32,167 nt of DNA, taken from a phage. Shown here piece by piece: positions 7,575-10,266 of this stretch (positions within the stretch are counted from its first letter, which is position 1; every line of letters starts with the position of its first letter). The translations under genes and the position numbers were made by a program. The notes beneath the pieces are model-generated. The model was not told where the DNA came from, made no database searches, and saw only the letters and a program-made list of their open reading frames with translations. The DNA lies in NCBI GenBank assembly GCA_021683455.1, contig GCA_021683455.1_3051.2; one strand, given 5' to 3'.

Positions 7575-8120
7575 ATGAGAAAAGCACTACTCGCTGGTCT
7601 ATTGGCCATTTCTATGATGGCACATAGTTCCGAGCATACTTTCAGTAATGTCCAACTCGATAACATGCGTTACGCGTATCAATTCGGGGAACAGTTTTCT
7701 AAGGATGGAAAATATAAAACACACAAAAATATCCACAAGAGCGGATTAGGTCATATAATGGCTGCCATTTTATGGCAAGAAAGCTCTGGCGGAGTTAATT
7801 TAAAATCTAAACCAAAACATCACGCCTACGGAATGTTCCAAAATTATTTGCCTACTATGCGAGCGAGAGTTAAGGAACTTGGTTATAATATGACCGATGC
7901 TGAAATAAAAAGAATGTTGAATAAACGATCCAATTCAGCTTCCTGGGCGTACATTGAACTTTCTTATTGGTTAAATATACATAAGGGCGATATAAGAAAA
8001 GCAATATCCTCTTATAATTCGGGATGGAATGTTAAAGCAGGTTCTAAATATGCTTCTGAAGTCCTAGAAAAGGCTAATTACCTTAAAAATAATAAACTTT
8101 TGGAAATAGTAAATGACTAA
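7575..8120 (+). CDS. secreted lytic transglycosylase-like protein (vs.1-position ORF)
   Basis: N-terminal signal peptide MRKALLAGLLAISMMAHS; WQESSGG and YGMFQ motifs reminiscent of SLT-family transglycosylases. Confidence 0.55.
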   Translation: MRKALLAGLLAISMMAHSSEHTFSNVQLDNMRYAYQFGEQFSKDGKYKTHKNIHKSGLGHIMAAILWQESSGGVNLKSKPKHHAYGMFQNYLPTMRARVKELGYNMTDAEIKRMLNKRSNSASWAYIELSYWLNIHKGDIRKAISSYNSGWNVKAGSKYASEVLEKANYLKNNKLLEIVND

Positions 8121-8460
8121 AATTTTGGTTTTATGTATAGGATTAATTTCATTTTCTGCTTATGCGTCAGCAGATACATCATATACTGAAATTAGGGAGT
8201 ATGTGAACCGCACTGCAGCGGATTATTGTGGGAAAAATAAAGCATGCCAAGCTGAATTTGCGCAGAAATTAATATATGCATATAAAGACGGAGAAAGAGA
8301 TAAATCAAGCAGATACAAAAACGATACATTATTAAAACGATATGCTAAAAAGTGGAATACCCTAGAATGTTCAGTTGCGGAGGAAAAAGATAAAGCCGCT
8401 TGTCATTCAATGGTTGACCGTTTAGTAGATTCTTATAATCGAGGATTGAGTACTAGATGA
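8113..8460 (+). CDS. small secreted protein at the vs position (valyl-tRNA synthetase modifier in T4)
   Basis: 115 aa matches T4 vs length as I recall it; N-terminal signal-like segment; overlaps upstream ORF end. Confidence 0.5.
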   Translation: MTKILVLCIGLISFSAYASADTSYTEIREYVNRTAADYCGKNKACQAEFAQKLIYAYKDGERDKSSRYKNDTLLKRYAKKWNTLECSVAEEKDKAACHSMVDRLVDSYNRGLSTR

Positions 8461-8936
8461 TTATAAAATATATCAAGGGCGATATTGTCGCCCTCTTTCT
8501 TGAAGGTAATATTATTGCGCACGGGTGCAATTGTTTTCATACTATGGGTTCAGGCGTAGCGGGTCAATTAGCAAGAGCCTATCCCAAAATTTTAGAAATA
8601 GATAAAACCACTACTGAGTACGGTTCTCGTGATAAATTAGGCGATATGTCTATTGTTTTTAAACATAGTCCTACGGGATTTGGTATATGCTATAACCTGT
8701 ATACGCAATACGAACCAGGTCCTAATCTTGATTATGGTGCTTTAGTAAACTGCATGATAGAATTAAATCTACAGGCAGAAACCCTTTTGTTTAAACCAGT
8801 AATTTACATTCCGCGTATAGGTTGTGGTATTGCTGGCGGCGATTGGGATAAGGTTTCTAAATTAATCGACATGTTTACTCCTGATATTGATTTAATAGTG
8901 GTGGATTATGAAAGTACATTACCCACATCCGTTTGA
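8457..8936 (+). CDS. macro-domain (ADP-ribose binding/processing) protein (tk.4-position ORF)
   Basis: KGDIVALFLEGNIIAHGCNCFHTMGSGVAGQLA and IPRIGCGIAGGDW resemble macro-domain ligand-binding motifs (compare E. coli YmdB); ATGA overlap with upstream stop. Confidence 0.6.
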   Translation: MIIKYIKGDIVALFLEGNIIAHGCNCFHTMGSGVAGQLARAYPKILEIDKTTTEYGSRDKLGDMSIVFKHSPTGFGICYNLYTQYEPGPNLDYGALVNCMIELNLQAETLLFKPVIYIPRIGCGIAGGDWDKVSKLIDMFTPDIDLIVVDYESTLPTSV

Positions 8937-9120
8937 TCCTAAAAACAAAGCAGTAATTATTCGTCAATGGGAACGCATTTGCCGTACTAAATGCCCAATT
9001 AATAGTCCACATGATGTAGATAAAGACTACATTGGAACATTCGTTGAATATACCTTTATTGATAAGAAAGGTCGTAAACAACATGTAGAAGAATATTGCT
9101 TAAAGGTTACATGGTTATGA
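8908..9120 (+). CDS. hypothetical protein
   Basis: 70-aa ORF with GGTGGA SD; overlaps macro-domain gene 3' end. Confidence 0.5.
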   Translation: MKVHYPHPFDPKNKAVIIRQWERICRTKCPINSPHDVDKDYIGTFVEYTFIDKKGRKQHVEEYCLKVTWL

Positions 9121-9323
9121 GCCAAACTAGTATTCTTAAAAATGCCCACTGTGAAAAGTGTAAGTGGCCGGTTGTTTTTGCTTTATGCAACGATGAAATG
9201 ACTTGTGATTTCGATTATTGGTGCTATTGTTCTAATAAAGGATGTATCAATCATAAAGGTGAAGGATTTTATTCGGGATTTTATCCTTATCCAGATTTCG
9301 TTAAAGAAGGTAAACCAAAATGA
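9117..9323 (+). CDS. small Cys-rich protein
   Basis: ATG 9117 overlaps upstream TGA; CEKCKW...CNDEMTCDFDYWCYCSNKGC cysteine cluster; track frame open from 9096. Confidence 0.45.
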   Translation: MSQTSILKNAHCEKCKWPVVFALCNDEMTCDFDYWCYCSNKGCINHKGEGFYSGFYPYPDFVKEGKPK

Positions 9324-9493
9324 ATAGTTTTGAGTTACAATACGAAGTGTTACGTGAGCTTGATAATTTAATTGAACTCGCTGCTAATAAAGGTTTTGCC
9401 ATTGGAATTGGTCAAAAAGATACTGATCATTTAACTATGGAAATATTTAAGCAAAAGCGAATTATTTTAAAACTCCTGGAAATTAATATATGA
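9320..9493 (+). CDS. small hypothetical protein (57 aa, below ORF-track cutoff)
   Basis: ATGA overlap at both ends linking flanking ORFs. Confidence 0.4.
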   Translation: MNSFELQYEVLRELDNLIELAANKGFAIGIGQKDTDHLTMEIFKQKRIILKLLEINI

Positions 9494-9675
9494 GTCTGAG
9501 TAAAGAACAAAAAGATAAATTGTTTGAGCTTATCCATGAACTTCTAGATGAGCATACAGAAGCAAACACCTTTTATGATGAATACGGCCCGCTATCTCCC
9601 GAACAGCAGGAAGAATTTGCTGATCGGTTTGATAAGAAAGAAAATGAATTAATAGCTTATGTGAATACGCTTTAA
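9490..9675 (+). CDS. small acidic protein
   Basis: 61-aa ORF starting at ATGA overlap. Confidence 0.5.
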   Translation: MSLSKEQKDKLFELIHELLDEHTEANTFYDEYGPLSPEQQEEFADRFDKKENELIAYVNTL

Positions 9676-9684
9676 GAAGGTGAT

Positions 9685-10266
9685 ATGGCGAGTTTAATTT
9701 TTACTTATGCAGCAATGAATGCTGGAAAATCTGCTTCTCTTTTGACTGCTGCACATAATTATAAAGAACGTGGAATGGGTGTATTAGTTCTTAAGCCTGC
9801 TATTGATACTCGCGATTCTGTCTGTGAAGTTGTTTCTCGCATTGGAATTAAGCAGGAAGCGAATATTATTACAGATGATATGGATATTTTCGAGTTCTAT
9901 AAATGGGCTGAAGCACAAAAAGATATTCATTGCGTATTTGTAGATGAAGCTCAGTTTTTAAAAACTGAACAGGTGCACCAATTAAGCCGAATTGTTGATA
10001 CATATAATGTTCCTGTTATGGCTTATGGATTAAGGACTGATTTCGCTGGAAAATTGTTTGAAGGTTCTAAAGAACTTTTGGCGATTGCAGATAAACTTAT
10101 TGAACTAAAGGCAGTTTGTCATTGCGGCAAAAAAGCGATTATGACAGCTCGATTAATGGAAGATGGAACACCAGTTAAAGAAGGTAATCAAATCTGTATT
10201 GGTGATGAAATTTATGTTTCTTTGTGTAGAAAACACTGGAACGAATTAACTAAAAAGCTCGGTTAG
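9685..10266 (+). CDS. tk: thymidine kinase
   Basis: P-loop MNAGKSAS, Walker B VFVDEAQF, C-terminal Cys zinc-ribbon (VCHCGKK...CIGDEIYVSLC); AAGAAGGTGA SD; 193 aa. Confidence 0.92.
   Translation: MASLIFTYAAMNAGKSASLLTAAHNYKERGMGVLVLKPAIDTRDSVCEVVSRIGIKQEANIITDDMDIFEFYKWAEAQKDIHCVFVDEAQFLKTEQVHQLSRIVDTYNVPVMAYGLRTDFAGKLFEGSKELLAIADKLIELKAVCHCGKKAIMTARLMEDGTPVKEGNQICIGDEIYVSLCRKHWNELTKKLG

Follow-up and report, generated by a model that had tools for sequence, protein, structure and literature searches.

The 159-aa open reading frame (ORF) that lies between vs and tk.3 in the window, the 32,167-nucleotide stretch of phage DNA analysed here, is probably a divergent allele of T4 tk.4 (adfM), whose product would remove the ADP-ribose that DarT2 adds to thymidine in single-stranded phage DNA, using a chemistry like that of the bacterial macrodomain SCO6735. 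In this mechanism, a small stand-alone ALC1/TARG1-like macrodomain would be produced early in infection and would bind the ADP-ribose that the host toxin places on the N3 of thymidine within TNTC motifs. Hydrolysis of the N-glycosidic bond would then give back unmodified DNA, on which replication and packaging could go on. The chemistry is most likely of the SCO6735 type rather than the DarG or TARG1 type, and would proceed with no catalytic lysine: the invariant Gln84, held in place by the invariant Asn25, would fix the position of the distal ribose, and cleavage would begin with a water held by the backbone. The fold, the family and class, the synteny-based orthology, the conservation of pocket residues and the Gln-type active site were established in this analysis, and from the T4 genetics we infer that the window allele, with 58% identity to the T4 protein, acts in the same way as T4 tk.4.

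The macro domain of tk.4 has carried a label for about 20 years, under the older domain name A1pp, and both the identity of the gene and the role of its T4 orthologue had already been explained. The T4 RefSeq record for tk.4 reads "phosphatase; Tk.4; contains A1pp phosphatase motif", and tk.4 orthologues were matched to smart00506 A1pp by Nolan et al. in 2006 (PMC1524935). A good many GenBank records of the window allele bear such labels, several reading "macro domain protein" and others "phosphatase". In the HIDEN-SEQ preprint of November 2025, tk.4 was the sole significant hit of a T4 transposon library on a DarTG2-expressing host, and T4 with a clean knockout of tk.4 was sensitised to DarTG2, a genetic result obtained with the T4 allele; the authors renamed the gene adfM (anti-DarT factor macrodomain) and proposed that its product removes ADP-ribose from DNA enzymatically (bioRxiv 10.1101/2025.11.20.689424). 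The name AdfM was likewise given to gp104 of phage PhiKZ in a 2026 Cell Reports paper, where the protein was found to strip DarT2-made ADP-ribose from a TNTC oligonucleotide in vitro, an activity reduced by the N23A substitution (PMC13309987). An earlier, sequence-only reading of this DNA had proposed that the protein could reverse a host ADP-ribosylation defence and that a deletion mutant be tried on hosts expressing DarT-type toxins; the preprint reports both for the T4 orthologue (bioRxiv 10.1101/2025.11.20.689424). Its suggestion that the T4 ORF lacked an assigned function no longer stands in view of the A1pp annotation, Nolan et al. (2006) and the adfM preprint. Two points developed below, the divergence of the allele and its glutamine-type active site, are useful refinements that leave the overall picture unchanged.

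The ORF is intact on the plus strand, as seen both in the ORF list and by direct reading, with an ATG start and a TGA stop at 8934-8936 (Table 1). Its ATG shares bases with the vs stop codon (ATGA) and its 3′ end overlaps the start of tk.3 by 29 nt, a packing that resembles the T-even early gene clusters, in which close spacing and overlap are typical. The flanking proteins are nearly those of the T4 reference (RegB 100%, Vs.1 100%, Vs 99%, Tk.3 96%, Tk 99% and rI.1 100% identity). Because the neighbours vs and tk.3 fall within this 96-100% range, the ORF holds the T4 tk.4 slot, with vs on one side and tk.3 on the other, and on this synteny it is assigned as the positional orthologue of T4 tk.4; in the RB51 record, the gene in the same slot is named tk.4. 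The placement between vs and tk given by the sequence-only reading agrees with vs upstream and tk downstream. By sequence identity, the window as a whole belongs to Tequatrovirus, the T4-like phages: hundreds of Tequatrovirus genomes match the DNA of the ORF at 97-99% identity, Shigella phage SfPhi01 being the best (99.4%), and over its first 25 kb the window shows 96-97% identity to phages including vB-Eco-KMB42 and RB51.

Table 1. Positions in the window of the assigned tk.4 orthologue, its neighbours and its internal features, with the basis for each or its comparison with T4.
Feature	Position	Strand	Basis or comparison
vs (valyl-tRNA synthetase modifier), upstream synteny anchor	8113..8460	+	99% identity to T4 Vs
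vs.1/vs			Nucleotide identity to T4 about 98%
Shine-Dalgarno-like GAGGA, 11 nt before the start codon	8441..8445	+	Direct reading of the sequence
Assigned tk.4/adfM orthologue, 159-aa stand-alone macro-domain protein	8457..8936	+	ORF list, Pfam, PHROGs, BLASTP, AF2, Foldseek
tk.4, first 120 nt			Nucleotide identity to T4 88%
GC-rich 8-bp hairpin within the 5′ end of the ORF, with CTTTCTT after it	8476..8494	+	Terminator-like scan
First ligand loop, residues 22-39, HGCNCFHTMGSGVAGQLA	8520..8573	+	Family alignments
Divergent cassette	8576..8922	+	40-72% nucleotide identity to T4, block-wise, MAFFT alignment
Codon CAA for Gln84, in the invariant N-x-Y-T-Q motif	8706..8708	+	Alignments
Gly-rich diphosphate-binding loop, residues 119-130, PRIGCGIAGGDW	8811..8846	+	Alignments
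tk.3, downstream synteny anchor	8908..9120	+	96% identity to T4 Tk.3
tk.3, later part	from about 8983		Nucleotide identity to T4 97%
tk	9685..10266		99% identity to T4 Tk; downstream of the macro-domain ORF

Sequence and model comparisons agree that the protein is a genuine macro domain and a member of the Macro superfamily. Residues 22-136 match Pfam PF01661 (Macro) over model positions 2-117 of 118, scoring 32 bits where the gathering cut-off is 22 (E=1.3e-7), and the ORF falls in phrog_335 ("phosphatase") of PHROGs with E=9e-72. A single-sequence search of solved structures returned BT1257, Poa1p, SCO6735, Mycobacterium tuberculosis DarG and TARG1. With a profile of 118 homologues, the matches in the PDB were BT1257 (8e-19), TARG1 (5e-16), SCO6735 (4e-15), Poa1p (2e-14) and DarG (3e-11), with viral Mac1 at just 2e-3. 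The AlphaFold2 model built from the 118-homologue alignment (pLDDT 94.3, pTM 0.89) has the alpha/beta/alpha macro fold, and Foldseek placed TARG1, Poa1p, BT1257, DarG and SCO6735 on top (TM 0.68-0.74, probability 1.00), within a range of TM 0.65-0.74 at probability 1.00 across many solved macrodomains. A C-terminal fragment searched against the PDB aligned in the Gly-loop region alone, and no DarG alignment was obtained with it. The macro-domain call of the sequence-only reading is thus upheld by a Pfam match above its cut-off, by the PDB profile matches and by the agreement of AlphaFold2 with Foldseek; of the checks it had proposed, the domain search gave a significant Pfam match with the Gly-rich loops conserved, and the structure prediction a confident macro fold. 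Within the superfamily, the profile and fold rankings agree in assigning the protein to the ALC1/TARG1-like class, with TARG1, DarG, SCO6735, BT1257 and ALC1 as its closest solved relatives, and not to the MacroD- or PARG-like proteins. DarG models match weakly (NCBIfam 8e-7, PADLOC 2.8e-7). Relatives are numerous: among 1.84 billion cluster representatives, a profile search recovered 17,904 with E<=1e-3 (1,140 with E<=1e-30), and tblastn picks up a relative in 2,790 phage records out of about 50,700.

Active-site residues were compared in a family alignment of 118 sequences, in 138 further representatives and in an alignment with solved homologues. The TARG1 sequence in these alignments agrees with the PDB alignments. 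The DarG, SCO6735 and BT1257 sequences were recovered from the PDB alignments of searches with PhiKZ gp104 and BT1257, while that of PhiKZ gp104 itself was taken from the published work (PMC13309987). The two motifs quoted in the sequence-only reading, GDIVALFLEGNIIAHGCNCFHTMGSGVAGQLA and IPRIGCGIAGGDW, occur exactly as given in the translation of the 159-aa ORF at 8457-8936, as residues 8-39 and 118-130. The conserved asparagine and both Gly-rich ADP-ribose-binding loops are present, with N25, G31/G33 and G122/G124/G127/G128 invariant or nearly so. In the first ligand loop H22, G23, N25, C26, G33 and A35 are invariant, and N25 aligns with N27 of SCO6735 and N23 of PhiKZ AdfM, positions at which substitution costs activity: SCO6735 N27S is nearly dead (PMC9411070), and the removal of ADP-ribose by PhiKZ gp104 N23A is reduced or lost (PMC13309987). 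In the diphosphate-binding loop, A126 stands at the position of TARG1 D125, the second catalytic residue of TARG1. Gln84 occupies the column that holds the catalytic lysine of DarG (K80, in an FPTK motif) and of TARG1 (K84), and which holds Gln85 in SCO6735. Glutamine fills this column in every one of the 119 close family members and 138 further representatives (257 in total), as well as in T4 Tk.4, BT1257 and SCO6735, with lysine in PhiKZ gp104. Altogether, none of the 12 invariant or 17 nearly invariant positions of the family is changed in the window allele.

The function proposed for these residues draws on SCO6735, which cleaves DarT-made thymidine-ADP-ribose on DNA and is inactive as the Q85A variant; in its proposed mechanism, the glutamine places the distal ribose and cleavage is started by a water that the backbone holds (PMC9411070). 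Since glutamine and not lysine is found at the catalytic position of T4-type AdfM, its chemistry would be better modelled on SCO6735 than on DarG. Like the ORF, SCO6735 (Streptomyces coelicolor, PDB 5E3B) and Bacteroides BT1257 (2FG1/2AFC) are stand-alone proteins of about 150 aa that have glutamine at the catalytic-Lys position, the conserved asparagine and a PRIGCG(I/L)AGGxW loop, and lack an Asp matching TARG1 D125. The residues diagnostic of this type are found in the ORF as Gln84, Asn25 and G122-C-G124, the last aligning with G126-C-G128 of SCO6735. The likeness has its bounds, with an identity of about 27-28% to the two proteins. The phage family reads HGCNC where SCO6735 and BT1257 read HVCND, keeps D49, Y82 and T83 invariant, and has a loop after the glutamine that is about 6 residues shorter, of TARG1-like length. 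In the alignment with solved homologues, the phage family has no counterparts of K89 and K94, the lysines of the mobile, DNA-binding loop of SCO6735 that aid its action on DNA (PMC9411070). SCO6735 is, moreover, a bacterial genome-protection enzyme and not a phage counter-defence.

The DarG macrodomain (Thermus aquaticus 5M31/5M3E, M. tuberculosis 5M3I) has its class and fold in common with the ORF, as well as the presumed substrate, DarT2-made thymidine-ADP-ribose on DNA. However, the ORF is not a DarG orthologue: it scores 28.6 bits against an equivalog cut-off of 250 with NCBIfam NF048014, over model positions 1-142 of 338. DarG is a protein of about 340 aa with its catalytic Lys80 and a C-terminal DarT-binding domain, encoded beside darT, whereas the 159-aa ORF has Gln84 in place of the lysine and no C-terminal domain, and its neighbours are vs and tk.3. 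No darT was found in the genomic context of a bacterial homologue from Pelagimonas, where the gene stands alone like that of SCO6735. PhiKZ gp104 resembles T4 Tk.4 in being a stand-alone phage macrodomain that counters DarTG2 and in its name AdfM, but it belongs to the DarG clade, with lysine in an FPTK motif and E=9e-25 to M. tuberculosis DarG, and it has in vitro biochemistry where the evidence for T4 Tk.4 is genetic. Membership of the two in one family was rejected, BLASTP of the ORF against gp104 giving E=0.001 over 23 residues only, with Q against K at the catalytic position. This weak local match, together with the DarG-like character of gp104, places the two AdfM proteins in different branches of the class, from which Tk.4-type and PhiKZ AdfM look like separate recruitments.

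Human TARG1/OARD1 and yeast Poa1p are the best fold matches to the model (TM about 0.72-0.74). TARG1 and the ORF have the (M/I)PRIGCG loop in common and differ at the K84/D125 dyad, which is Q84/A126 in the ORF; Poa1p, which has the H-x-C-N-C motif in common with the ORF, is characterised as a small-molecule phosphatase. A small-molecule role is an unlikely alternative that nonetheless survives best, namely that the protein acts as a phosphatase on ADP-ribose-1''-phosphate, deacetylates O-acetyl-ADP-ribose, or breaks down toxic metabolites or immune signals derived from ADP-ribose. Poa1p, the yeast ADP-ribose 1''-phosphate phosphatase, matches the ORF in both sequence and fold, the HGCNC of the ORF resembles the HSCNC of Poa1p, H22 shares an alignment column with the residue altered in the Poa1p H23A structure, and the NCBIfam O-acetyl-ADP-ribose deacetylase model gives a weak match. 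The T4 RNA-repair pathway is not known to yield ADP-ribose-1''-phosphate, which speaks against a substrate of this kind. Iyer et al. (2022) predicted small ADP-ribose derivatives as the targets of most phage macro domains (PMC9503650), but the "phosphatase" name of Tk.4 is carried over from the old A1pp domain name (PMC1524935 and the T4 record), and the sole recorded tk.4 phenotype is DarTG2-specific (bioRxiv 10.1101/2025.11.20.689424).

Somewhat less probable again is that the protein mainly erases ADP-ribose, or ADP-ribose linked to RNA, that Alt, ModA and ModB of the phage itself have attached, and so tunes or recycles marks on host proteins with no part in counter-defence. The sequence-only reading had raised this alternative too, and the analysis lends it no support. 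Alt and ModB modify mainly arginine, and such marks are unlike the acidic-residue and thymine/uracil linkages for which TARG1-class enzymes are known. In the window, the ORF has no genomic linkage to an ADP-ribosyltransferase gene, its neighbours being vs and tk.3. T4-like phages do encode three ADP-ribosyltransferases (PMC9503650), and the class relatives TARG1 and SCO6735 do hydrolyse protein-linked ADP-ribose (PMC9411070), but loss of tk.4 is tolerated on plain E. coli K-12, the gene becoming important specifically in the presence of DarTG2 (bioRxiv 10.1101/2025.11.20.689424). SCO6735 and TARG1 additionally reverse uracil-ADP-ribose on RNA (PMC13036486). Because these relatives act on both protein-linked ADP-ribose and uracil-ADP-ribose RNA, DNA may not be the sole or main substrate, and further substrates for a Tk.4-type protein are plausible. 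Against removal of DarT2 marks from phage DNA, the reading that we favour, count this substrate breadth of SCO6735 and TARG1, the view of Iyer et al., the missing SCO6735-type Lys loop, and the 42% residue difference from the T4 allele.

That difference contrasts with the surrounding genes. By BLASTP, the window protein is 58% identical to T4 Tk.4 (NP_049723.1; E=8e-71) over the full length and without gaps, and RB51 Tk.4 is likewise 58% identical to it, amid flanking genes that are 96-100% identical. The two proteins have in common the slot between vs and tk.3, phrog_335 and a length class (159 versus 155 aa, the window protein being 4 residues longer at the C-terminus), and both keep H22, N25, Q84, G122, G124 and W130. 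They part in the diphosphate loop, which reads GCGIAGGDW, the consensus, in the window protein and GAGIGKGNW in T4 (A126G and G127K in T4), so that the loop is nearer the family consensus in the window allele than in the genetically tested T4 allele. The nucleotide alignment, with its divergent block bounded by T4-like sequence on either side (Table 1), marks the window tk.4 as an allele replaced in cassette-like fashion, one breakpoint lying within the conserved 5′ part of the gene. Both alleles are common, the window type (>=90% DNA identity) occurring in about 284 phage records and the T4 type in about 225.

The fast, cassette-like divergence outside the active site could also be read as a protein-protein arms-race surface. 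Least likely of the alternatives is that the protein protects mainly by stoichiometric binding and blocking of DarT2, or by shielding the product, with hydrolysis dispensable: the dead variants SCO6735 Q85A, DarG K80A and TARG1 K84A do all inhibit DarT in vitro, SCO6735 most strongly (PMC9411070), but the 159-aa protein is without the C-terminal DarT-binding domain of DarG (about 340 aa), and its active-site residues do not vary at all across 257 family members, including many bacterial ones with no toxin next to the gene, which argues for selection on catalysis. It is conceivable, as a tentative suggestion, that the two tk.4 alleles differ in specificity, whether for DarT2 variants, for other thymine/uracil-directed ADP-ribosyltransferases or in toxin binding, in which case the tk.4 locus would be an arms-race hotspot. 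A separate suggestion, equally tentative, is that Tk.4-type AdfM (Gln-type, short loop) represents a third TARG1-like branch, recruited independently of the Lys-type PhiKZ AdfM. At least two strongly diverged tk.4 alleles are found in T4-like phages, exchanged within an otherwise conserved backbone, and the allele type would matter for forecasts of the DarTG2 systems that a given therapeutic T-even phage can escape. The main value of the analysis lies in correct labelling, as the databases give "phosphatase" or "hypothetical protein" where the evidence favours a DNA de-ADP-ribosylase directed against DarTG2.

The promoter scan found no more sites than expected by chance and is silent on expression. 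A minus-strand ORF at 8875..9084 (69 aa) was rejected: it is unsupported and lies beneath the conserved coding sequence of tk.4 and tk.3. The hairpin in the 5′ end of the ORF has a predicted RNA folding energy of -12.6 kcal/mol (z=-3.07) and is also kept in the T4 sequence. In a 2026 preprint, Tk.4 of phage T2 was found in the proteome of infected cells, and its mRNA contacts host sRNAs, including ArcZ.

The tk.4 locus, which encodes the macro-domain protein of this phage, differs sharply from its surroundings when compared with the T4 reference sequence (L001). Between positions 8576 and 8922 of the window, nucleotide identity is only 40-72%, while the backbone around it is ~98% identical, and the edges of this low-identity stretch are sharp. 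Such an abrupt drop indicates that tk.4 underwent recombinational allele exchange, and each of the two alleles is found in a few hundred sequenced T-even phages. In the diphosphate-binding loop, T4 Tk.4 carries a Lys where 96% of the family have Gly, and a Gly at a residue that is Ala in 92%. By residue conservation, then, the atypical allele in this loop is that of T4, the one that was genetically tested.

Adjoining the tk.4 cassette is a second mosaic patch (9096..9675, + strand), where the region between tk.3 and tk is unlike that of T4. Here, T4 has tk.2 and tk.1, whereas the window has three small ORFs, whose equivalents in phage RB51 are named RB32ORF111c, RB32ORF110c, and tk.2.

Features of the tk.4 region and of the compared sequences
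Feature	Location	Strand	Remarks
Hairpin AGGGCGAT-ATT-GTCGCCCT	window 8476..8494	+	within tk.4 ORF, 5′ end
Small ORF, 75 aa	window 9096-9323	+	Cys-rich
Small ORF, 57 aa	window 9320-9493	+	
Small ORF, 61 aa	window 9490-9675	+	54% identity with T4 Tk.2
T4 tk.4	L001 4923..5390		
Bacterial homologue, Pelagimonas phthalicica chromosome	L002 6001..6459		~40% identity

Upstream, an ATGA overlap joins vs (window 8113..8460) to tk.4, through which the two genes are translationally coupled. According to the HIDEN-SEQ preprint (bioRxiv 10.1101/2025.11.20.689424), no T4 gene is more strongly depleted in minimal medium than vs. The hairpin has a perfect, GC-rich 8-bp stem followed by CTTTCTT, with an RNA fold of -12.6 kcal/mol (z=-3.07), and is called terminator-like on each of the two strands. 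T4 tk.4 contains the identical hairpin, and one GenBank record (LR215723.1) places a ‘terminator’ feature beneath the match. Between vs and tk.4, the hairpin could act as an attenuator or help to set RNA stability, or it could be a mere by-product of the conserved KGDIVAL codons.

The Pelagimonas phthalicica homologue is a stand-alone gene with housekeeping-type neighbours, and no ADP-ribosyltransferase gene was found in its genomic neighbourhood (L002). It is placed similarly to SCO6735, the Streptomyces coelicolor macrodomain with a stand-alone ‘genome protector’ arrangement.
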